Of a stretch of DNA of 64,000 nucleotides, positions 639-27,542 are shown in pieces. The position numbers were made by a program, and so were the translations under genes. Under the pieces are notes generated by a model. That model was given only the letters and a program-made list of their open reading frames with translations, made no database searches and was not told where the DNA came from. This stretch comes from Anaerolineae bacterium (GTDB lineage: Bacteria > Chloroflexota > Anaerolineae > Aggregatilineales > Phototrophicaceae): assembly GCA_022822305.1 (NCBI GenBank), contig JAJEBY010000013.1:131617-195616 (forward strand). The letters run 5' to 3'. Positions within the stretch are counted from its first letter, which is position 1. Every line of letters begins with the position of its first letter.

Positions 639-1390
639 CTTGCGCCGCGGCTGCGGACCTTATCCGGGCCAGCGCCCGGATAGCCCACTCGAAACAGGGT
701 GGCGGTCGCGCCGAACATGATGCGATCGCCGTCGCGCAGGATCTGCGCCTTGCCGCCAGTCACCGGCCGCGTATTGACCGATGTGCCGTTGACGCTGCCC
801 AGATCAAAGAGCTTCCAGTGATGCTTCTCTTTGACCAGAAAGGCGTGAGGCCGCGACACGGTGGGATCCTGTAAAGCGATCTCCCAGGTGGAATTGGGCG
901 TGGAGCGTCCGATATAGATTTCGTCTTTCAGCAAGGCGTAGACCTGCCCCTGCTGTGGACCTTTGGTGATGCGCAAGCTGGCTTTGTCGCCCACGAGCAC
1001 CGAGACCAGCGCCGCCGCCTCGTCGCCCGGATCGGCATTGGCGCGGATCAGCCTGAGCATGGTGACGAAGAGATTGATTTCATCGCCCAGCGCCAGCGTA
1101 TTAGAGCCGTCAACGCGATTGCCGTTGACAAAAGTGCCGTTGGCGCTGTCGAGATCATCAATGAGGAACTTGTCGTCGCGGCAGGTCACCACGGCGTGCA
1201 TGCGCGACACATGCCCTTCCGCTATCTGAATATCGTTGGAGGCGGAGCGGCCGATGGTCACGCTCGTGCCTTCTGTCATAAGGTGTTCACGCGTCTCGCC
1301 CGTGTAGGGATCGAGCCAAACCAGTTTGGCGCCCGCAACGTCCATCGACGGTATTCCCATAATCGCCAAAATCACGGGCGATTGTAACAC
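635..1390 (-). CDS. Double FHA-domain protein
   Basis: Two FHA-like units (TIGRSASNDIQIAEGHVSRMHAVV...SANGTFVNG and YIGRS...VSRPHAFL...SVNGTSVN). The stop overlaps the sulfatase ATG as ATGA (635-638). Start is uncertain: GTG 1390, or ATG 1360 or 1345. Confidence 0.8.
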   Translation of the reverse strand: MLQSPVILAIMGIPSMDVAGAKLVWLDPYTGETREHLMTEGTSVTIGRSASNDIQIAEGHVSRMHAVVTCRDDKFLIDDLDSANGTFVNGNRVDGSNTLALGDEINLFVTMLRLIRANADPGDEAAALVSVLVGDKASLRITKGPQQGQVYALLKDEIYIGRSTPNSTWEIALQDPTVSRPHAFLVKEKHHWKLFDLGSVNGTSVNTRPVTGGKAQILRDGDRIMFGATATLFRVGYPGAGPDKVRSRGAR

Positions 1391-1448
1391 GTCAACGCGT
1401 CCGGGGGTAAATTTTGAATGTGGTTGGAATCGTGTTTGTCAGGTGTTG

Positions 1449-1469
1449 ACTGTCTCGATCCGAGACAGT
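1449..1469 (-). other. Intergenic stem-loop (9-bp perfect stem actgtctcg/cgagacagt, 3-nt loop) between the LCP gene stop and the FHA gene start
   Basis: Inverted repeat read directly from the sequence. No U-tract follows on the minus strand, so a terminator role is unproven. Confidence 0.3.
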
Positions 1470-1506
1470 AGCGGCAACTCCATTTGACCCTTGAGGATGC
1501 GATTCT

Positions 1507-3063
1507 CTACCCGTCGATGATCGCCAGCGCGTCCTCGCCCAGCGCGAGCATGACGCCCGCCGCGATCACGCCGTCGCCGGCGCGCGCGATACGCTCATCG
1601 GGAAGGCCCAGCAGCTGCGCCAGGTAGCGCGCCGTCCAGATATGGCGACCGCCATAGTCACGTATCTCGGTCAACCTGAGATCGCTGGAAACGAGATTAC
1701 CCACAGCCGCGATGCTGACGCCGCGCTCGATCAGCCACTCGCGCGTCCGGGTGGCGAGGCCGACCAGTTTGGTGCCGTTATACACGTAAATCGGCGCATT
1801 CTCTACGCGGGCGCGCGCCTGCATGTCCGCCAGCGTAATGTTCAACTGCGGATAGAACACACGTTGGATCAGATCGCTGATGGAGGCGTAATCCGGGTAA
1901 AGCACCTGGTCGCCTTCGGGACTGATCCCGCCCGATACATAGAGGTTGTCCACTACTTCAAAGCGGATGTTCTCGCGATCGATTTCGGTCATCAAGCGCG
2001 CCAGCGCCAAGATATCCTCCAGCGACAAGTTCGTGCGATAGTTATCGTGCAATTCTATCCACAGGCGCGGCGCCCCCGCGATGATATTGAAGATGCCGCC
2101 CGCGCTCAACACTTTGGCGCGCAAGGCATCCAGCACTTGATGCTGCCGCCGCAGGCGGTCGAAATCGCCTCCTTCGGTGGCGCGCGTGCGGGCATATTGC
2201 AGCAAGGTCTCGGCATCCATGCGCTGCTCGCCCGGCTGGAATCGCACGTGGATGTAACCGAAACCCGCATCGGGGTAGGTGGGATCGTCGATGGCTTCCG
2301 CGACTGTGATTGGCACGCCGTTAGGCGCCAACAGATCGACAACCGTCAGGAAAACATCGAAGTTGATCAGCAGATACTTATCGACCGGCACGCCGAAATT
2401 GGTGGAGACGGTTTCCATCGCCAAGGCGGGACCGCCTCCGCCGGGATACGCATCCCTGTCGCCGATGAAGTTGGCAGTATTGATGCGACTTGGCTCATAG
2501 CCCGGGATTGTCACCCAGAGATCGCGCGGCAGCGAGAGCACACCGATCGTCTTGCGCACGGGATCGACGTTCATCAGCATCATGGTATCGGTGCGAAATG
2601 GTCCGTTTTCGCCGGTGGCGCTGCGTTGATCGATGCCCATCAACAGGATGCGAATCTGCCGCGGGTCGGTTATGCGCGGCAAATCGATCGGCGCCGCCGC
2701 GTTTGGCATCGGCGAGGGCAATGCTGTGGCGACGCTCGCTGTGTTGAAATCCGAAGTTGCCGCGGGCGCGACCGGATTCAATGTCGCCACGTCCGTCGGC
2801 GCGGCGGTGAGCATCGGTGTCAAGACCAGCAGCGGCGGATCAGCCTTTGGCGTCGGCGGCACCGCATCCCCGTTTTCGCAGGGGGTTTGGCCCGTCAGCA
2901 GGCAGCGCAGCACCAGCCAGGGGTCTTCCACCGGAACGCCGGTCCGGCTCAGATCGACAACCGCTCGCTGCGTCAGGCCGAAGGTGGTGACCGCACAGAT
3001 GCCCGTGCCCAGCAATAGCGCGACGAATGCCAGGAAACCCAGCAGCCACCTCGGAATACGCAT
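1507..3063 (-). CDS. LytR-CpsA-Psr (LCP) family cell-envelope phosphotransferase with N-terminal membrane anchor and C-terminal LytR_C-like domain
   Basis: ILLMGIDQRS...RTDTMMLMNVDP...LSLPRDLWV motifs; N-terminal hydrophobic helix. Confidence 0.85.
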   Translation of the reverse strand: MRIPRWLLGFLAFVALLLGTGICAVTTFGLTQRAVVDLSRTGVPVEDPWLVLRCLLTGQTPCENGDAVPPTPKADPPLLVLTPMLTAAPTDVATLNPVAPAATSDFNTASVATALPSPMPNAAAPIDLPRITDPRQIRILLMGIDQRSATGENGPFRTDTMMLMNVDPVRKTIGVLSLPRDLWVTIPGYEPSRINTANFIGDRDAYPGGGGPALAMETVSTNFGVPVDKYLLINFDVFLTVVDLLAPNGVPITVAEAIDDPTYPDAGFGYIHVRFQPGEQRMDAETLLQYARTRATEGGDFDRLRRQHQVLDALRAKVLSAGGIFNIIAGAPRLWIELHDNYRTNLSLEDILALARLMTEIDRENIRFEVVDNLYVSGGISPEGDQVLYPDYASISDLIQRVFYPQLNITLADMQARARVENAPIYVYNGTKLVGLATRTREWLIERGVSIAAVGNLVSSDLRLTEIRDYGGRHIWTARYLAQLLGLPDERIARAGDGVIAAGVMLALGEDALAIIDG

Positions 3064-3246
3064 GGATTCCAGCCCTTTTTGTCAAACTGCCGATTGTGGC
3101 AGTTGAGCAAATCTGAAGTAAGAGAACTCGCGGCAGGTCAAGGCGGCGCCGCCGAGCGACTAGCTTCCGCTGAGTCGTAGCTACGCTTAGCGCAACGATC
3201 GCCGCGAATTATAGCATAGCCAAGGCGCGCTGCAGCAGTCGCTAAA

Positions 3247-3813
3247 TCATACGCTTGGGCTGCGCGACCTTTGGCGCAGGCTGCGGATATAGGCATCGCT
3301 GTCGGGCACGTGCACGGGCAGGTGACGATACATCGGTCGCGGCGGCATCACCATGATGCTTTCGATCATGCCGCCCAGATCAGTGGCGGCGTCTGCGGCG
3401 AATGGGGCCGGCTCCCGCCATTGCCCATCGCTAATATCGGCGATTGCCGCTTCCAGCCGCGCGCTGACGTTCCGGTATTCGTCGATTTGCTCAGACAAAC
3501 TCAAATGTCGGCGATCGGCGATGCCTCCATAGTGGATGGCACGACTGACGCGAGCGTCGTTCACCGCATCGACGGCGCCGGGCTTGTGGCCGAGCCGCCA
3601 CTCCGCGATTGCCTCCAGCGTCAGCGCTTCATAGCAGATCAAATGGGCCAGCAGATCTTTGAAGGAGCATTCCTGGTCATAATAGAGACCGTACTTGATG
3701 GTATCGCGGCGGGTCATCTCTTCCTCGGTCAACGCAGCCATCAGCGCCGCAACCGCGTCATGTTCGATTCCCAGGAGACGCAGGGCTTCCGTTCGCTCGA
3801 TTGTGGCGCGCAT
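3247..3813 (-). CDS. DinB/ClbS-like helical-bundle protein (weak assignment)
   Basis: 188-aa ORF with coding-like composition. The segment DLLAHLICYEALTLEAI resembles DinB-superfamily helices. No catalytic motif confirmed. Confidence 0.45.
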   Translation of the reverse strand: MRATIERTEALRLLGIEHDAVAALMAALTEEEMTRRDTIKYGLYYDQECSFKDLLAHLICYEALTLEAIAEWRLGHKPGAVDAVNDARVSRAIHYGGIADRRHLSLSEQIDEYRNVSARLEAAIADISDGQWREPAPFAADAATDLGGMIESIMVMPPRPMYRHLPVHVPDSDAYIRSLRQRSRSPSV

Positions 3814-19847: not shown

Positions 19848-21071
19848 TCAGGAGAAGTATCGGCGCAGTCGGTTGGCCAGCCGTTTGTGCTGGCACTCCA
19901 CAAGCTCAAAGCTGTCGCAGCCGTGAAAGGCCATGAATTCTTCGATGGCCTCGATCAAGCCGCGGCTCAGCGCCGCGCTGTACTTGACGCCCTTTTCCAG
20001 ATAGAGCGCGTGAAGAGTCAGCCGTCTCCGCACACGGTCGACCTTGGGATCAATGCGCCCGACCAGGTCGCAGCCCTGCAGAATCGGCATCACGTAATAG
20101 CCGTAGCGGCGCTTGGCTTTGGGCGTGTAGACTTCGATGGTATATTCGAAATCCCAAAGCATGGCATCGCGCTCGCGATCCCAAAACAGATTGTCAAAGG
20201 GCGAGAGGAAAACAGTCAATTCGGGCTCATGCCTACCAGACTGGATTTCCTCAAGCAGCGGCAGATCATCGCGATGAATGAAGGCGTTTTCCGCCCAGCC
20301 AGCGACCGCGACGGGCAGCGCCTCACCCGATTCTTGCATATCGCGTAGATGATTGGCTGCGCTGCGCTTGTATTGACGATAATAATCGGAGACTTGATTG
20401 GCCGTGGCGATCCCCAGATGCCGCAAGCCGCTGGCGATTGTCCAGCGCCGATAATCGTCCAGCGTCTTGTCCGTGGAGAATTGCCTGCCCGCCAGCACGC
20501 GCTCGCTGAGATCGTAGTAGCGTTGGAAATTAATGCGATGACTGACCATGAGCTCGCCGCGATACAAGAGGTATTCCAAGGCCACCTTAGCCGGCTTCCA
20601 ACTCCACCAGCCGCCCGGTCCGCGGCGCTCGCCTTCGATATCCTTGGACGACAGCGGGCCGCGCTCGCGCACCAATGCCAGCACCGTTTCCACGATTTCG
20701 GGAAAATCCTCGCCCAGCCGCTCGATTTTCCAGCGCGTTTCCAGCGTGTGCCGCTGCGCTATCCAGGGCCGATACCAGGGATAGTTCGCGAAAGGGATTT
20801 GACACATGGCATGCGACCAGCTCTCGAAGAGGAAGCCGTCATCCAGCAGGGCATCGAGATCGGCGGGGTCGTAAACGCCGGCGCGCGCCAGCATGACCAG
20901 GTAGTGGCTGCGCGCGACCACGCTGATGGAATCGAGTTGCAGCAAACCGATGCGCTCGATGATGCGCTTGAGTCGGGAGGGGTCGTCGCTGGCTGGGCGT
21001 TGGTGCAAGCCCTGCTTGTAAACGGCGAGTCGCTTGACGGTTTCGCGGGTGACGGGGATGGGCGCGGTCAT
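19848..21071 (-). CDS. YcaQ/AlkZ-like winged-helix protein (DUF1006; interstrand-crosslink DNA glycosylase family)
   Basis: LAVYKQGL...IIERIGLLQLDSISVVARSHYLVMLAR...FESWSHAMCQIP... resembles the YcaQ family as I recall it. Start set at ATG 21071. Confidence 0.7.
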   Translation of the reverse strand: MTAPIPVTRETVKRLAVYKQGLHQRPASDDPSRLKRIIERIGLLQLDSISVVARSHYLVMLARAGVYDPADLDALLDDGFLFESWSHAMCQIPFANYPWYRPWIAQRHTLETRWKIERLGEDFPEIVETVLALVRERGPLSSKDIEGERRGPGGWWSWKPAKVALEYLLYRGELMVSHRINFQRYYDLSERVLAGRQFSTDKTLDDYRRWTIASGLRHLGIATANQVSDYYRQYKRSAANHLRDMQESGEALPVAVAGWAENAFIHRDDLPLLEEIQSGRHEPELTVFLSPFDNLFWDRERDAMLWDFEYTIEVYTPKAKRRYGYYVMPILQGCDLVGRIDPKVDRVRRRLTLHALYLEKGVKYSAALSRGLIEAIEEFMAFHGCDSFELVECQHKRLANRLRRYFS

Positions 21072-21116
21072 GGCGGGGATTGTAGCATGGGGTGGCAAAA
21101 TCAACCCCCCTCTATA

Positions 21117-21142
21117 TCTCCCCCCATCGCGATGGGGGGAGA
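21117..21142. repeat. Perfect 26-bp palindrome tctccccccatcgcgatggggggaga
   Basis: Read directly from the sequence; lies in the divergent intergenic region between ycaQ-like and the ATPase gene. It shares the 11-mer gatggggggag with 26030-26040. Confidence 0.9.
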
Positions 21143-21346
21143 CTTTGTCGACGTCAGCGTAGTCCGCCATTTTGCCGCCGTCGGAAGAGACTTTTCGGCA
21201 ATTTGGCAATTTGTTGGGTCTTCGGTTGTTGAGGCGCGGGTTGAGGTCAGGGTAGCGTGGATGGGTGAGGTGGTGGCGTCTGGATGGTCGTGTACTGATT
21301 TCACCAGCGAGGAATTGACACGGATCGCATAGGCAATAGCCAGTGA

Positions 21347-21408: not shown

Positions 21409-22773
21409 ATGAGCGCTGCGATGTTCAAGCAGATCAGCATGAAAAACTTCAAGTCGTGGCGCGACACCGGCCCCGTGCGCATGGCGCCGCTGACGGGTTT
21501 CTTCGGCGCGAACAGCTCGGGAAAGAGCAGTTTGCTGCAAATGCTGTTGCTGCTGAAGCAGACGGCGGAATCGAAGGATTTGAACTTGGTATTAGAGACG
21601 GGCGCTATGAGAGACGACTATGTCGACCTCGGTACGCCTTTTGAAATCGCTCAAAATGAGTCAACCGAAATGGAAATGGGTTTTGAATGGACATTTGCGC
21701 CCACAAAAGCAAAACCTACGCTGATACGTGTGCCGATTCCCAACCGGCACGAATCCTTAGAAATAGGTGAGATGTCGTTTAAGTCTAAATTACATGTAGA
21801 TACTCAGCGAAATCATGTTTTACAAATGCAATATCGACATCGAGAAGATGTATTGGTGGAATTTAGGCGTGCGGGAAACAATAGATACACGATTGATATT
21901 TCTATATGTGGAGAACATCCCGTGCGCGCGCAAGGTCGCCCGCGAGTGTACATGAAGCCCGAAAAGTGCTACAGCTTTTCGGACGAAGCTTTGCGGTATT
22001 ATCAGTCAACTAGCTTTTTGAATGACTTTGTTCTTCAATTTGAGCGTCAATTTGAGCATATGCATTACTTGGGCCCGCTTCGTCCTTATCCGCAACGCGA
22101 CTATACGTTGATTGGTGGCAGTCCTCAAAGTGTCGGTTTCAAAGGAGAATTTGCGATCCATGCCTTACTGGCTGCGAAAAACCAAAAGGTCTACCGGGAT
22201 GGTAGGCGGCAGTTCAGCAAGCTCGAATCACGCATTGCGCAATGGCTTGTAGAGCTTGAATTGGCAAATGCATTTGAGACGCGTCCGTTGTTCAAGGGCA
22301 GCAACCAATATGCTGTTTGGCTGAGACGTCACTCGGCGAGTAAAGAAGTTCGAATAACTGACATGGGAATCGGAGTCTCACAGGTTTTGCCCGTACTTGT
22401 TCTCTGCTACTATGTGCCTGAAGGTTCGACAATTATCCTTGAACAGCCGGAGTTACACTTGCATCCATCAGTGCAGGCGGGCTTGGCAGATGTCTTCATA
22501 GACTGCATAAAAAATCGAGGATTGCAGATAATATTAGAGAGTCATAGCGAGCACATGCTGCGACGGCTTCAACTTGGTCTAGCGAAGTCTGAGATTGTTC
22601 CCGAAGATACGGCTCTCTATTTCTGTGATATTACGGACGGAGTATCTGAACTCATATCACTTGACGTGGACATGTTTGGTACTATCCACAATTGGCCAGA
22701 CGACTTTTTCGGGGATCTCGCTGGCGACATGGTAGCGGCTTTTGATGCTGGTCTGAAACGCCAAGTCCACTGA
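21409..22773 (+). CDS. ABC/AAA_21-type (SMC-like) ATPase with C-terminal WPDDFF tail (DUF3696-like, from memory)
   Basis: Walker A GANSSGKSS (21505-21531); signature-like MGIGVSQVLP; Walker B and downstream IILEQPELHLHP (22432-22467); H-loop ILESHSEHM; C-terminal GTIHNWPDDFFGD. Start could instead be ATG 21421. Confidence 0.85.
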   Translation: MSAAMFKQISMKNFKSWRDTGPVRMAPLTGFFGANSSGKSSLLQMLLLLKQTAESKDLNLVLETGAMRDDYVDLGTPFEIAQNESTEMEMGFEWTFAPTKAKPTLIRVPIPNRHESLEIGEMSFKSKLHVDTQRNHVLQMQYRHREDVLVEFRRAGNNRYTIDISICGEHPVRAQGRPRVYMKPEKCYSFSDEALRYYQSTSFLNDFVLQFERQFEHMHYLGPLRPYPQRDYTLIGGSPQSVGFKGEFAIHALLAAKNQKVYRDGRRQFSKLESRIAQWLVELELANAFETRPLFKGSNQYAVWLRRHSASKEVRITDMGIGVSQVLPVLVLCYYVPEGSTIILEQPELHLHPSVQAGLADVFIDCIKNRGLQIILESHSEHMLRRLQLGLAKSEIVPEDTALYFCDITDGVSELISLDVDMFGTIHNWPDDFFGDLAGDMVAAFDAGLKRQVH

Positions 22774-22777
22774 ACGC

Positions 22778-23326
22778 ATGACAGCCAAGATAATTGACAC
22801 CAACGTACCGCTTACCGCGGCGGGCCTCAACTCCAGCGCGTCCAAGCGATGTCAGCTTAGCTGTGTTTCGGTTATACAGGCGGTTTTAGCAGGGCAAATG
22901 AGAGTAGTTATTGACACAAACAATGAAGTTTTGCGCGAATACAATCGTCGTATTCATCCAGATTTCAAAGGCTCGCTGGCTGAACAGTTCATGCTTTACA
23001 TGCTCCAGAATCGCACGGTTGCGAGCCGTGTTCACAGTCAGGGGTTGCGATACAACGACACTGAAAGTTATTTTGATTATCCGGACAATGACGATACTTG
23101 GACTTCCGATGTTCAACGCTGCAAGCGCTTTGACCCGGATGACAAGAAATGGGTAGCGCTTGCCTGCGCCTTCAAACGAGAAACTGGCGACGACGCGCCC
23201 ATCGTAAACGCGGCCGATAGATGTTGGCTGGCATTTGAATCACATCTTGAAGCAGCCGGTGTCCAGTTGGAAGTTCTCTGTCGCGACGAGCGAGAGGGAA
23301 GTAGTCCTCACTCCAACACCAGCTGA
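22778..23326 (+). CDS. PIN-like domain protein (putative nuclease partner of the ATPase)
   Basis: Starts 4 nt after the ATPase stop. N-terminal MTAKIIDTNVP (PIN hhDTNV motif); later acidic positions VVIDTNNEVLREY, FDPDDKKWVALACAF, IVNAADRCWLAF. Fold assignment is inference only. The last ~6 codons lie inside the fetB-remnant repeat. Confidence 0.55.
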   Translation: MTAKIIDTNVPLTAAGLNSSASKRCQLSCVSVIQAVLAGQMRVVIDTNNEVLREYNRRIHPDFKGSLAEQFMLYMLQNRTVASRVHSQGLRYNDTESYFDYPDNDDTWTSDVQRCKRFDPDDKKWVALACAFKRETGDDAPIVNAADRCWLAFESHLEAAGVQLEVLCRDEREGSSPHSNTS

Positions 23327-23436
23327 TACGCGGGATTGTAAAACTGCCGGTAGGTCAGCCAGACCGAGCGGTAAACCTGTACGCCGCCTATCAGTAACGC
23401 TATAATTGCAGTGTAGCTGGCGCAGAAGGCAAGCCC
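23308..23436 (-). pseudogene. Orphan 3'-end fragment of a fetB-like permease gene
   Basis: The minus-strand open frame of 42 codons ends ...VWLTYRQFYNPAYQLVLE*, versus ...AWLTYRQFFTPMHQLVLE* in the intact gene at 24094. DNA 23308-23367 matches 24094-24153 at 48/60 positions (hand count). No gene body lies upstream. Confidence 0.65.
23401..23406 (+). promoter_or_regulatory. Perfect TATAAT -10 box 33 nt upstream of the DUF433 gene
   Basis: tataat at 23401-23406; no convincing -35 hexamer (tgtacg at a 17-nt spacing). Confidence 0.25.
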
Positions 23437-23438
23437 TC

Positions 23439-23744
23439 ATGGAAGAAACCATAGAAAGCATCGACCTCATCACCCGCAAGCCCAATGTCCGCGGCGGTCG
23501 ACCCTGTATCAGAGGTACGGGCTTGCGCGTGACTGACATCGTCGTCGCGATGCGTTATCACGGACGTACGCCGGAACAGATTTCGGAGGGCTTTCAGGTA
23601 TCCCTGGCCGGTGTTTACGCTGCTCTTGCCTATTACAACTTACACAAGGATGACGTCGACGCCGATATCGAGAACCAGATAACAAGAGCGCGAGAGCTTA
23701 GGGACAAAGGTGTTGGCAGCCGCAGAACTACGCTTCTACCTTGA
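23439..23744 (+). CDS. DUF433-domain protein (putative antitoxin/HTH)
   Basis: ITRKPNVRGGRPCIRGTGLRVTDIVVAM...GRTPEQISEGFQVSLAGVYAALAYY is the characteristic DUF433 core. Start set at ATG 23439. Confidence 0.8.
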   Translation: MEETIESIDLITRKPNVRGGRPCIRGTGLRVTDIVVAMRYHGRTPEQISEGFQVSLAGVYAALAYYNLHKDDVDADIENQITRARELRDKGVGSRRTTLLP

Positions 23745-24063
23745 CGAGCATTTGGATGTAGAGATCGCGCGCCAACTCAAGCCACGCGGTATTGATGTCA
23801 TTACTGTGCCCGAAGTGAAAAGCTTCGGCGAAGACGATCTGCTTCAATTGCGTCGTTCTATCCGGATGGGACGCGTATTCTGTACCAATGACAGCGACCT
23901 AATCGAAATAGCTAGCGAAGGAATTGAACACACGGGCATTGTATTTGGTCAGCAGGAGAAGCATTTTATCGGTACGTGGGTCAAGTTTTTGATCAAATTG
24001 CATAAAGAGTTTCGACCAAATGAGCTAGCGAATCTTGTCACGTATATCTCCACTGAGGACTGA
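23710..24063 (+). CDS. DUF5615-family PIN-like protein (putative toxin)
   Basis: LRFYLDEHLDVEIARQLKPRGIDVITV...LLQLRRSIRMGRVFCTNDSDL matches the DUF5615/Mut7-C-like pattern as I recall it. GTG start 23710 overlaps the DUF433 gene by 35 nt. Confidence 0.7.
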   Translation: MLAAAELRFYLDEHLDVEIARQLKPRGIDVITVPEVKSFGEDDLLQLRRSIRMGRVFCTNDSDLIEIASEGIEHTGIVFGQQEKHFIGTWVKFLIKLHKEFRPNELANLVTYISTED

Positions 24064-24093
24064 TTATACGATTATCTCGATTCCAAGTATTGG

Positions 24094-24867
24094 TCACTCC
24101 AACACCAACTGATGCATCGGCGTGAAAAACTGCCGATAGGTCAACCAGGCCGCGATCAGCCCGGTGAAGGTCGCCGCGCCCACCAGCATATACATCACTA
24201 TGATTTGCAGCTGCACCGCCTCCAGCGGACTCGCGCCGGCCAGGATCATGCCGGTCATGGCGCCGGGCAGCTTGATCAAACCCACGGTCTTGGTGGTATC
24301 GATGATCGGCGTCAGCGCGCTTTTGATCGTGCGTTGAAACTGCGTCAGCGAGGCTTGCCGCCCGGTCGCGCCCAAGGCCAGCTTGCTCTCGATCAGGTCG
24401 CGCTGGTCGTGGAAGTCGCTGCTCAGCCGCGTGATGACCAAGGTGGCGGTGGTCATGGATGTGCCCAGGATCATGCCGCCGATGGGGATGATGTCTTTGG
24501 GTACGAACGCGAAGACGCCCAGAGCCACCAGCAGCGCCAGCGTCATGGCCGTGCCGGCGCCGATCGCCAGCAGCGAGATCGTCTGCGCGTGGGGCGTCCC
24601 TTTGGCGCGGCGGGCGGTGGTGCGGCCGGCCGTGAGCGTCATGATCAGCAAGATGCCCACGGTGAAGACCGGAGTATCGATCTCGAATACCAACTCCAGC
24701 ACATAGCCGATGGCGATCAGCTGGATGAAACTGCGAAAGGTGGCGATGAACAGGTCTTTTTCAAGATCGGAATCTTGCCAGCGCGAGACCGCGGCCGCGA
24801 TCAAGATGAAGGCGATCGACAGCAGCACGCGCTCCATACCGGCCATATTCAGGAAAAAGTCGGGCAT
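24094..24867 (-). CDS. fetB: FetB/YbbM-family (UPF0014) ABC-transporter permease
   Basis: Multi-TM protein with ...TVGLIKLPGAMTGMILAGASPLEAVQLQIIVMYML... typical of the family. Start at ATG 24867, preceded by GGGAGG. Confidence 0.75.
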   Translation of the reverse strand: MPDFFLNMAGMERVLLSIAFILIAAAVSRWQDSDLEKDLFIATFRSFIQLIAIGYVLELVFEIDTPVFTVGILLIMTLTAGRTTARRAKGTPHAQTISLLAIGAGTAMTLALLVALGVFAFVPKDIIPIGGMILGTSMTTATLVITRLSSDFHDQRDLIESKLALGATGRQASLTQFQRTIKSALTPIIDTTKTVGLIKLPGAMTGMILAGASPLEAVQLQIIVMYMLVGAATFTGLIAAWLTYRQFFTPMHQLVLE

Positions 24868-24884
24868 TTCAGCCTCCCGTTGAT

Positions 24885-25418
24885 TCACCAGCTCAATGTC
24901 GGATTCTTGAACGGCGCCAGCGCCATGATGACAGCGTGCGCATAATAGGCTTCGCGGTCGATGACGTCGTCCGTGAGCAACCCGATGGCGCCGCTGGATT
25001 GCTTGGAATTCTCGCGTCCGAAGACCTGGTCATCAGCGTGGCCGACCTCCATGCCCGCGCGCACCAGCGATGCCACTTCTTCCGGCAGATAAAAGACGGC
25101 GGTCTGTCCGCGGCCGATGCGTCCGTTTCGACCGATGATATGTACCCAGGCGAAGCAGGTCATGCCCAGCGCGGAGTCTTCGATGCCGCCTTCAATGCCC
25201 AGCCAATAATCGCTCTCGGGATGCCGGGCACGGGCATTCTCCGCGCGATTGCGGGCGCCGGTCATTGTCTCGGCCCGTGACGTCGGCTGGTCAGGGACAC
25301 CTGAAGCGACTGAGACGCCGACAACTTGAAAGTCGTCATTGGGAAAGAGACGCTCGAAGCCGATACCCGCGGCGGCAAGCTTGACCGGATTATGGGAGGC
25401 GACGGTGATCCTGGGCAT
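24885..25418 (-). CDS. yjjX: Inosine/xanthosine triphosphatase (YjjX, DUF84 family)
   Basis: ITVASHNPVKLAAAGIGFERLF...VSVASGVPDQP...TGARNRA...WLGIEGGI pattern. Confidence 0.75.
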   Translation of the reverse strand: MPRITVASHNPVKLAAAGIGFERLFPNDDFQVVGVSVASGVPDQPTSRAETMTGARNRAENARARHPESDYWLGIEGGIEDSALGMTCFAWVHIIGRNGRIGRGQTAVFYLPEEVASLVRAGMEVGHADDQVFGRENSKQSSGAIGLLTDDVIDREAYYAHAVIMALAPFKNPTLSW

Positions 25419-26801: not shown

Positions 26802-27542
26802 CTAGTCAGCCTGGTGCAGTCCGGCTTGATCGCCCTCCGCGAAAGCCAGCGCGCGTCTGTCGCCCGTGAGCGGATCAAGCATCGCTTCCACCGTGTCTTC
26901 GCGGATGACGCGACCCTCATCGAGCAACAAGACCCGACTGCCGATGCGCCGCGCCTGCTCAATCGAATGCGAGACCCAGATCATCGTCAGGTCGGTTTCC
27001 TGGCGCAGCCGCAGCAGCGACTCCTCGACGCGGCCGGTGGCGATGGGATCCAAAGCCGATGTCGGCTCGTCCAGTAACAGCAGCGAGGGTTCGAGCGCCA
27101 GCGCCCGGGCAATGGCCAGGCGCTGTTCCTGACCGCCCGAGAGCTTGCTCGCCGGCTGGTCTATCAAGTCTTCCTCCAGCGAGATTTGTCGCATCAAGTC
27201 GAGAATCTCCCCGCGCGAAATCTCTCTGCCCTGCAAAGCCAGGCCAAAGGCGATGTTGTCCGCCACGCTGCCCTCGAACGCGGCCGTCTTCTGAAATATC
27301 ATGCCCACGCGGCAGCGCAATTCGGAAATCGGCAGGTCGAAGACCGATTGGCCATCAAGATGGATGCTGCCCGCGTCAATATCGTTCAGCCGATTGACGC
27401 AGCGCAGCAGAGAACTCTTGCCGCTGCCGCTGGGCCCGATCACGACCAGCAATTCGCCAGCCTCCAGCTCGAGGTCGATATCGCGCAGCACTGGCTTTCC
27501 GCCGCGCGTGAGTTGCAGTTCACTGATGCTCAGTTTGGACAC
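26802..27542 (-). CDS. ABC transporter ATP-binding protein (PstB/FetA-like)
   Basis: Walker A GPSGSGKSS, signature LSGGQEQR, Walker B LLLLDEPTSALD, H-loop WVSHS. Its stop abuts the trmD stop. Confidence 0.88.
   Translation of the reverse strand: MSKLSISELQLTRGGKPVLRDIDLELEAGELLVVIGPSGSGKSSLLRCVNRLNDIDAGSIHLDGQSVFDLPISELRCRVGMIFQKTAAFEGSVADNIAFGLALQGREISRGEILDLMRQISLEEDLIDQPASKLSGGQEQRLAIARALALEPSLLLLDEPTSALDPIATGRVEESLLRLRQETDLTMIWVSHSIEQARRIGSRVLLLDEGRVIREDTVEAMLDPLTGDRRALAFAEGDQAGLHQAD

Follow-up and report, generated by a model that had tools for sequence, protein, structure and literature searches.

Genomic islands and integrative and conjugative elements (ICEs) insert at the 3' ends of genes or tRNA genes and bring a replacement end with them, and they are known to have integrase-less derivatives of the cis-mobilizable element (CIME) type and to undergo tandem accretion. 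Defense hotspots flanked by core genes are known in the pangenomes of Escherichia coli and Pseudomonas aeruginosa. In the effector-immunity arrays of the Vibrio cholerae type VI secretion system (T6SS), and in the orphan arrays of Rhs and contact-dependent inhibition (CDI) loci, modules are proposed to be displaced sequentially: homology in an anchor would be combined with an illegitimate join, displaced fragments would remain, and no integrase would be involved (PMC5361080). Herein, we describe a duplicated gene end in a stretch of 64,000 nucleotides (the window) from an Anaerolineae bacterium (GenBank assembly GCA_022822305.1, contig JAJEBY010000013.1), a member of an uncultured genus of Phototrophicaceae (Chloroflexota) known from metagenome-assembled genomes (MAGs). 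A remnant of the 3' end of the gene for a FetB-like permease (hereafter fetB) sits between a candidate defense pair of the HEC-03 type and a DUF433/DUF5615 toxin-antitoxin (TA) cassette, while the fetB-like gene itself is intact. This recombination scar is a commonplace result of the shuffling of cargo at a hotspot rather than of a recent island insertion that brought a foreign gene end. The elements involved, with gene identities from Pfam, PADLOC and NCBIfam searches, are as follows.

21409-22773, plus strand: HEC-03B-type ABC/AAA_15-AAA_21-DUF3696 ATPase (PADLOC HEC-03B, E 1.7e-121, full length; Pfam AAA_15, AAA_21, DUF3696)
22778-23326, plus strand: HEC-03A-type PIN-like partner (PADLOC HEC-03A, E 4.8e-20; weak Pfam PIN_3 match)
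23308-23372, minus strand: fetB-like pseudogenized remnant, last ~21 codons and stop (nhmmer envelope 23301-23394; 48/60 identical; 7 novel non-synonymous states)
23373-23438, plus strand: TA cassette left end and promoter-like region (edge AAACCTGTAC at 23373-23382; conserved TATAAT at 23401-23406)
23439-23744, plus strand: DUF433 protein, presumed antitoxin (Pfam PF04255, E 1e-15; subclade III of the fetB-linked DUF433 clade)
23710-24063, plus strand: DUF5615 protein (PIN-like/Mut7-C-like), presumed toxin (Pfam PF18480, E 1.3e-9; weak Mut7-C match)
24064-24093, no strand: 30-nt spacer from the DUF5615 stop to the fetB stop, forming the right edge of the cassette, with no conserved site
24094-24888, minus strand: intact FetB-like (UPF0014) permease (Pfam PF03649, E 1.2e-73), of which 24094-24153 is the live counterpart of the remnant

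By analogy, the closest described parallel to this locus appears to be the sequential displacement in the T6SS and Rhs/CDI arrays (PMC5361080). As in those arrays, a conserved anchor lies on one side, new modules stand next to it and older material is pushed outward. Fragments of the anchor end are kept between modules, exchange seems to be mostly ordinary homologous recombination with no integrase, and protective genes are orphaned, here as antitoxin-only DUF433 genes in G083, G004 and G021 (G000 denotes the genome of the window, and other G numbers genomes of the same genus). Unlike in those arrays, the anchor is a housekeeping-type permease rather than a toxin gene, the modules are type II TA and defense genes that converge on the anchor, and the host belongs to an uncultured Chloroflexota genus in which the mechanism is read from sequence only. 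With the islands and ICEs that use gene 3' ends, the locus shares a target 3' end repeated directly on both sides of the insert, an intact target gene and one repeat per array unit. It differs in that neither element nor locus holds an integrase, the insert measures just 0.65 kb, the repeats vary in length, the right edge lacks a conserved core and the cassette also occurs without a repeat. The likeness to the E. coli and P. aeruginosa hotspots lies in a fixed interval between ycaQ and fetB with alternative cargo (HEC-03, AAA_13, SLFN/AlbA_2, DUF559 or TA genes), in empty sites (G043, G045, G081) and in replacement of the whole interval with breaks in the flanks, whereas the absence of mobile-element hallmarks, the extra remnants of the anchor end and the small stacked cassettes set it apart.

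The left copy of the gene end, at 23308-23367, aligns without gaps to 24094-24153, with 48 of 60 positions identical and all of the first 14 bases matching. The live copy was compared with all other 60-mers on both strands of the window, leaving out the self match and the fragment at 23308; the mean number of identities was 15.3 (sd 3.5) and the maximum was 31. A blastn search of the left copy against the whole window gave E 5.9e-9, and a nucleotide profile of 20 intact fetB 3' ends matched the fragment at 23301-23394 (E 4e-15). The minus-strand translations, which end in ...VWLTYRQFYNPAYQLVLE in the fragment and ...AWLTYRQFFTPMHQLVLE in the permease, each followed by a stop, are identical at 13 of 18 residues. 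The fragment is a real, pseudogenized copy of the end of the fetB-like gene, and the profile search found no further copy in its own genome of 3.67 Mb. The original prediction, made from the sequence of the window, had given the repeat coordinates, the 48/60 count and the 13/18 identity correctly, and the background maximum and the blastn value bear out their significance. Its open reading frame (ORF) coordinates were also right, with the PIN-like ORF at 22778-23326 stopping inside the fragment and the DUF433 ATG at 23439. The 42-codon orphan frame that it described on the minus strand does close at 23437-23439; however, only about the last 21 codons are fetB-derived, and the upstream half is the antisense of the TA promoter region. 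The part that is demonstrably derived from fetB is 23308-23372, and as direct repeats 23308-23372 and 24094-24158 bracket the TA insert. A remnant reaching the DUF433 ATG, which would make the TA promoter fetB-derived, was rejected after a profile of upstream fetB found nothing in 38 promoter segments; extensions of the nhmmer match to profile positions 130-150 in some genomes are unproven.

The fetB neighborhoods were taken from essentially all 68 genomes of the genus, and 62 fetB loci were classified by their cargo.

HEC-03 directly against fetB, no remnant: ~25 loci
HEC-03, remnant, TA and fetB (the composite of the window): 9 loci (G000, G016, G018, G019, G049, G051, G071, G072, G075)
TA and remnant, without HEC-03: 7 loci
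TA or lone DUF433, without remnant: 6 loci
HEC-03 and remnant, with a DUF559 endonuclease-like cassette replacing the TA pair: 2 loci (G059, G082 copy B)
Empty site: 3 loci (G043, G045, G081)
Other cargo (AAA_13 ATPase, SLFN/AlbA_2, unknowns): the remaining loci of the 62

Remnants, one or two per locus, occurred in 18 of the 62 loci. In all 18, a cassette lies between the remnant and intact fetB, holding at least DUF433 in 16 loci and DUF559 in two, so that the fetB anchor stands on one side and the remnant on the distal side of the cassette, as in a displacement scar. None of the ~25 HEC-03-only loci has a remnant, nor does any relative lacking both the TA pair and a cassette, and in the 63 genomes that match the fetB 3' end, no remnant was found away from fetB. 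In the genus-wide DNA search, extra fetB ends were confined to ~0.65-1.5 kb from the intact gene, with the exceptions of a rearrangement in G082 and of G063, where fetB is on two contigs. Further copies of the remnant or cassette were absent from the rest of the window's own genome and, across the genus, from sites away from fetB. A similar arrangement next to fetB was not found in two other genera sampled or in the divergent G023. The ycaQ-fetB interval is a cargo hotspot in the genus. Neither ORF clustering nor Pfam revealed an integrase or transposase among the interval ORFs of the window and the genus loci examined, and the sole recombinase trace in those loci is a degenerate fragment beside a remnant in G082.

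These distributions separate what was sound in the original prediction from what was not. Its view of the fragment as a displaced duplicate of the fetB 3' end, produced by recombination at that end, is supported, as is its suggestion that the HEC-03 (ATPase/PIN) and TA pairs arrived separately, since relatives carry either alone, both or neither. It had treated the event as particular to this genome; the composite is present in nine species and the remnant in 18 loci, and the arrangement was therefore inherited or transferred as a unit. Its comparison with an island insertion is not supported, as no recombinase was found in the ycaQ-fetB interval of the loci examined. TA-less relatives carrying the fragment, which it had named as an observation that would count against it, exist at two loci (G059 and G082 copy B), but there a DUF559 cassette replaces the TA pair.

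In the fetB sense, the remnants extend from roughly ...CGCGGCCTGGCTGAC through the stop codon, and then run directly into the 3' end of the PIN-like gene, as intact fetB does in the ~25 HEC-03-only genomes. At the other end, the junction with the TA cassette has two subtypes. Subtype A, GACAGGCTG|CGCGGC, is found in G007 (twice), G016, G017, G018, G049 and G051, and subtype B, GTACAGGTTT|ACCGC..., with small differences, in G000, G068, G071 and G075. Small deletions in one putative join, GTACAGGTTT|ACCGGGCTGATCGCGGCC, could give rise to both. The remnant-less TA loci of G002 and G057 have the edge GTACAGGTTT too, with unrelated sequence next to it, and a TATAAT ~20 nt inside the edge is perfectly conserved in fetB-linked TA cassettes whether or not they have a remnant. 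In TA-only G002 and G057, alignment scores for a decayed remnant were no better than those of shuffles. The remnants are 57 to at least 96 nt long; their left boundary varies and the right flank is unconserved, so there is no sharp core at both repeat ends. Past the intact fetB stop, G002 alone shares the sequence of the window, and the other TA-bearing genomes vary there.

We then asked what the 20% divergence between the two copies in the window represents. The G000 remnant has 11 differences from the genus consensus, and the states at seven of them are found in none of 59 intact alleles; all seven novel states are at codon positions 1-2. It matches its own allele at 49/61 positions and the best foreign allele at 52/61, which we read as no closer to any foreign allele than to its own. 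The intact G000 fetB end is an ordinary genus allele with few private changes. The divergence thus points to mainly in-place decay, with a few private changes in the live copy, rather than to two lineages as originally proposed, a proposal that sits poorly with 7 of 11 differences being absent from every intact allele and confined to codon positions 1-2. When the remnants were pooled, the states absent from the 59 intact alleles numbered 38, 42 and 7 at codon positions 1, 2 and 3, while variation among the intact alleles was 56, 99 and 229; the remnants are therefore unconstrained. Stop codons occur in the remnants of G007 and G015 and an insertion in that of G068. In the genome of the window, the remnant is an old, decaying, functionless scar.

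Other remnants are nearly perfect. The G018 remnant is identical to its own intact end (61/61), that of G016 matches its own end at 60/61 positions and carries the private substitutions of that lineage, and that of G059 carries the unusual ...TVAHQLVFE of its own lineage. Either a recent origin or renewal from the intact copy is needed to explain such remnants, and the renewal would have proceeded by gene conversion or unequal homologous recombination. As a side observation, near-identical repeats at the fetB locus fragment short-read MAGs: in G047 (L166, L181; contigs C40, C212), the assembly is interrupted precisely at the fetB repeat, with one contig ending inside fetB and another opening with a 97%-identical remnant ~0.9 kb from ycaQ.

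The TA alleles do not follow their flanks. The fetB-linked DUF433 genes form one clade with three subclades, apart from the many DUF433 paralogues elsewhere in the genomes, and these subclades cut across a tree of four flanking core proteins. The sisters G017 and G018 carry subclades II and III, and the near relatives by flanks G004 and G071 carry III and I. In G002, G068 and G048 the flanks are almost identical, yet G048 has subclade II and the other two III. G048 and G068 share 94-100% identity in the flanks but 40-70% across the whole interval, and the identity breaks off at the start of ycaQ and at the stop of fetB. Exchange therefore takes place mainly through homologous replacement of the entire interval. 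G002 and G068 have TA proteins 88-90% identical to those of G000, and in the flank tree other genomes stand nearer to G000. A recent TA transfer into G000 was considered and rejected, because in comparisons with G002 and G068 the TA pair does not exceed fetB in nucleotide identity (to G002, TA 82-98% and fetB 85-95%).

Several loci hold stacked or decayed cassettes. In G007, two remnants share one junction; G083 carries a stack of three DUF433 genes, none accompanied by a DUF5615 toxin, and two remnants (L051, 6930-9100). G017 has a second, truncated DUF433, the DUF433 of G049 is frameshifted with the toxin absent, and beside the G015 remnant the PIN-like gene is reduced to its C-terminal third. 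Antitoxin-only loci also include G004 (L047), with a DUF559 cassette at the place of the toxin gene, and G021 (L048), with a lone DUF433. By analogy, the antitoxin-only loci resemble the orphan immunity arrays of T6SS and CDI loci. Away from fetB, back-to-back tandem arrays of two or three full DUF433/DUF5615 pairs, ~620 nt apart and free of fetB fragments, were seen at L059 (G006:C215, 4650-6200), L064 (G070), L065 (G020) and L063 (G050), and at E 1e-15 there are up to eight DUF433 paralogues per genome.

The PIN-like gene was previously suspected of having lost its native C-terminus in the event. Its stop does lie inside the fragment: the last 19 nt of the ORF are antisense into the fetB remnant, which provides the last six codons and the stop. 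However, the conserved ...LCRDER end is present in the window protein, and the same type of tail is found in ten TA-less relatives, in which the ORF enters the intact fetB end by 19 nt (five genomes) or 32 nt (five others). The 19-nt overlaps give tails of the type ...HSNTN followed by the stop, and the remaining TA-less relatives stop just short of fetB. To judge from these comparisons, the antisense-fetB tail is a native, variable feature and nothing was lost. Since the PIN-like gene and fetB overlap convergently, an insertion that keeps both genes intact must duplicate their shared end.

The largest rearrangement of the locus is in G082, a complete long-read chromosome with two full fetB copies ~39 kb apart (G082:C1:4081500-4126200; L060, L070-L072). 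The order is NTPase, fetB_A, TA, remnant, a degenerate integrase, metabolic genes (amidohydrolase, Rieske, SBP_bac_5), NTPase' (28-177), fetB_B, DUF559, remnant, HEC-03 and ycaQ. On its other side, the 39-kb insert is bounded by the duplicated NTPase'-fetB segment and not by an att-like remnant. The whole looks like a Campbell-type insertion of a circle bearing the fetB region of another strain.

How did a fetB end come to lie between two cargo modules? In our judgment, it probably arose when two cargo haplotypes that both abut the fetB stop were brought together by one, or very rare, illegitimate join, which was followed by homologous spread, swapping, stacking and conversion. Both common haplotypes end at the fetB stop codon. 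In one, the PIN-like gene of the HEC-03 pair converges on the fetB 3' end and often overlaps it, and in the other the DUF433/DUF5615 cassette is likewise convergent on fetB. The HEC-03-fetB'-TA-fetB composite most likely arose once or very few times. The founding event would have combined a homologous crossover in the core flank with one illegitimate join, as in homology-facilitated illegitimate recombination, joining the TA left edge (GTACAGGTTT|) to a point ~80-100 nt short of the fetB stop. Each partner would have brought its own fetB end, leaving one of the two copies orphaned beside the PIN-like gene. Vertical descent and homologous recombination in the conserved flanks would then have spread the composite, TA alleles would have been exchanged independently of the flanks, and unequal recombination between the repeated fetB ends would have stacked or removed cassettes. 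Remnants would sometimes have been refreshed from the intact copy, and otherwise would have decayed.

Several points weigh against this history. The G083 remnants are longer, starting ~96 nt before the stop, and their junction looks different; the founding events may therefore number more than one. Only TTT is common to the TA edge GTACAGGTTT and fetB ...TTTACCGGG, and a microhomology of ~3 nt at the putative join would not be diagnostic. Either direction fits, TA into the HEC-03 haplotype or HEC-03 with its overlapping fetB end into the TA haplotype. The near-perfect remnants of several species would need gene conversion or recent re-formation. The hosts are uncultured, and DNA uptake and RecA-dependent integration are assumed. 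Finally, a degenerate tyrosine-recombinase fragment (Phage_integrase, E 2e-12) lies right after remnant 1 of G082, at the edge of the 39-kb insert.

That fragment is also part of the case for site-specific integration, an explanation we hold to be unlikely. Here, a tyrosine-recombinase element with a replacement fetB end in its attP would use the fetB 3' end as attB; the TA and DUF559 cassettes would be integrase-less (CIME-like) leftovers, or would be mobilized in trans, and the stacks would reflect tandem accretion. Direct repeats of a gene 3' end around an insert with the gene kept intact, constant insert orientation, arrays with one remnant per cassette, and two cassette types between the intact end and a remnant all speak for it. 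Yet no recombinase was found in the ycaQ-fetB interval of the loci examined, and the G082 insert, bounded by the duplicated NTPase'-fetB segment, fits homologous Campbell-type insertion. The cassette right edge has no conserved sequence, remnant length varies from 57 to at least 96 nt, and in G002 and G057 the TA cassette has the same left edge but no repeat. A non-replicating circle carrying the TA pair and ~65-100 nt of fetB end, inserting by a single crossover at the chromosomal fetB end and remade by loop-out, is quite unlikely as well. It would yield exactly the order repeat-cassette-repeat, and would account for the remnants with resident private substitutions (G016, G059, G018) and for the G007 stacking with identical junctions; the large Campbell-like insertion in G082 is at the same locus. 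But the fetB end of the first circle would be left unexplained, so an illegitimate event would still be required, 65 nt is a short homology, and the G000 repeats are only 80% identical, which argues that the process is not active there.

The explanation given in the original prediction was a recent insertion in the window's own lineage of a foreign TA pair with a foreign fetB end, with the left copy native and the 20% divergence marking two lineages. We consider it very improbable and largely refuted. The left copy is collinear with the resident PIN-like gene, and the G000 TA pair has 88-90% protein identity to that of G002 and G068, which are not nearest by flanks. Against this stand the composite with the same junction in eight other species, a TA pair that does not exceed fetB in nucleotide identity to G002, the novel states of the remnant, which indicate decay, and the ordinary genus allele at the intact end. 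Chance similarity or an assembly artefact has a negligible probability. The window is from a metagenome-assembled draft, repeats can mislead assemblers and the G047 contigs do break at the repeat; however, 48/60 compares with a background maximum of 31 (E 6e-9), and the same architecture is found in independent assemblies, complete long-read chromosomes included.

A broader role for the duplicated end is doubtful, though it deserves mention: the end could act as a portable homology handle for recombinase-free capture, stacking, exchange and deletion of small TA and defense cassettes. If so, the locus would be an integrase-free, integron-like cassette array that keeps orphan antitoxins in an uncultured Chloroflexota genus. 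The locus illustrates that small defense and TA modules combine at a core-gene-flanked hotspot without mobile-element machinery, and such joins can be recognized by an orphan gene-end fragment. The 62 loci surveyed form a natural series of empty, single, composite, stacked and decayed states, suited to the study of cargo turnover and orphan antitoxin retention in uncultured Chloroflexota. For annotation, the fragment is best marked as a pseudogene remnant, the PIN-like tail as native and the permease as FetB-like.

The remaining features of the window concern the cargo and its surroundings.

19848-21209, minus strand: AlkZ-like/YcaQ DNA glycosylase, the conserved left border of the variable interval (Pfam PF06224, E 1.1e-59)
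21104-21148, no strand: G/C-run palindromic element CAACCCCCCTCTATATCTCCCCCCATCGCGATGGGGGGAGACTTT / CAACCCCCCTCTAWATCTCCCCCCATNNNNATGGGGGGAGACTTT at the left cargo edge, upstream of ycaQ (4 copies in the genome)
24885-25418, minus strand: inosine/xanthosine triphosphatase (ITP/XTP pyrophosphatase)

The HEC-03B and HEC-03A genes are adjacent and 4 nt apart, the pairing that PADLOC looks for, and constitute a candidate anti-phage system. DUF433 (101 aa) and DUF5615 (117 aa) are co-directional with a 35-nt overlap, the layout of type II TA pairs, and on that basis are presumed to be antitoxin and toxin. The pair had no PADLOC match, and a literature search found no paper naming DUF433 together with DUF5615. 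A consensus promoter and terminator scan missed the TA promoter-like region, whose poor -35 accounts for the lack of a sigma-70-type match, and detected no terminator within the remnant. The GC content is 0.42-0.55 in the cargo and 0.58-0.66 in the flanks.

ycaQ borders the interval on this side in nearly all loci of the genus, and alignments begin at residue ~37-41; its true start is probably ~35-40 codons inside the ORF. Among the other cargo, a 776-aa AAA_13 ATPase (PF13166, E 6e-40; PrrC/RloC-like architecture) is the only cargo in two genomes, at L165 (G080, 1117-3513) and L038 (G024), and SLFN/AlbA_2 proteins fill the hotspot in five others. In G059, G004 and G082, the palindromic element is also the terminal part of the DUF559 cassette, directly beside the remnant, and may mark the ends of a small mobile DUF559 module. 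Its positions in these relatives are L179 (G059), ~1790-1835; L047 (G004); and L072 (G082), ~2430-2490.

The permease scored 214.5 bits against the FetB equivalog TIGR00245, below the cut-off of 410; as a UPF0014 member under that cut-off, it is therefore named FetB-like and not FetB. There is no FetA adjacent to it. The nearest ABC ATPase (26802-27542), with a PstB-like protein as its best score, is 2 kb away, with a GNAT gene and trmD in between. The permease is translationally coupled to the ITP/XTP pyrophosphatase gene, with a stop/start overlap at 24885-24888.

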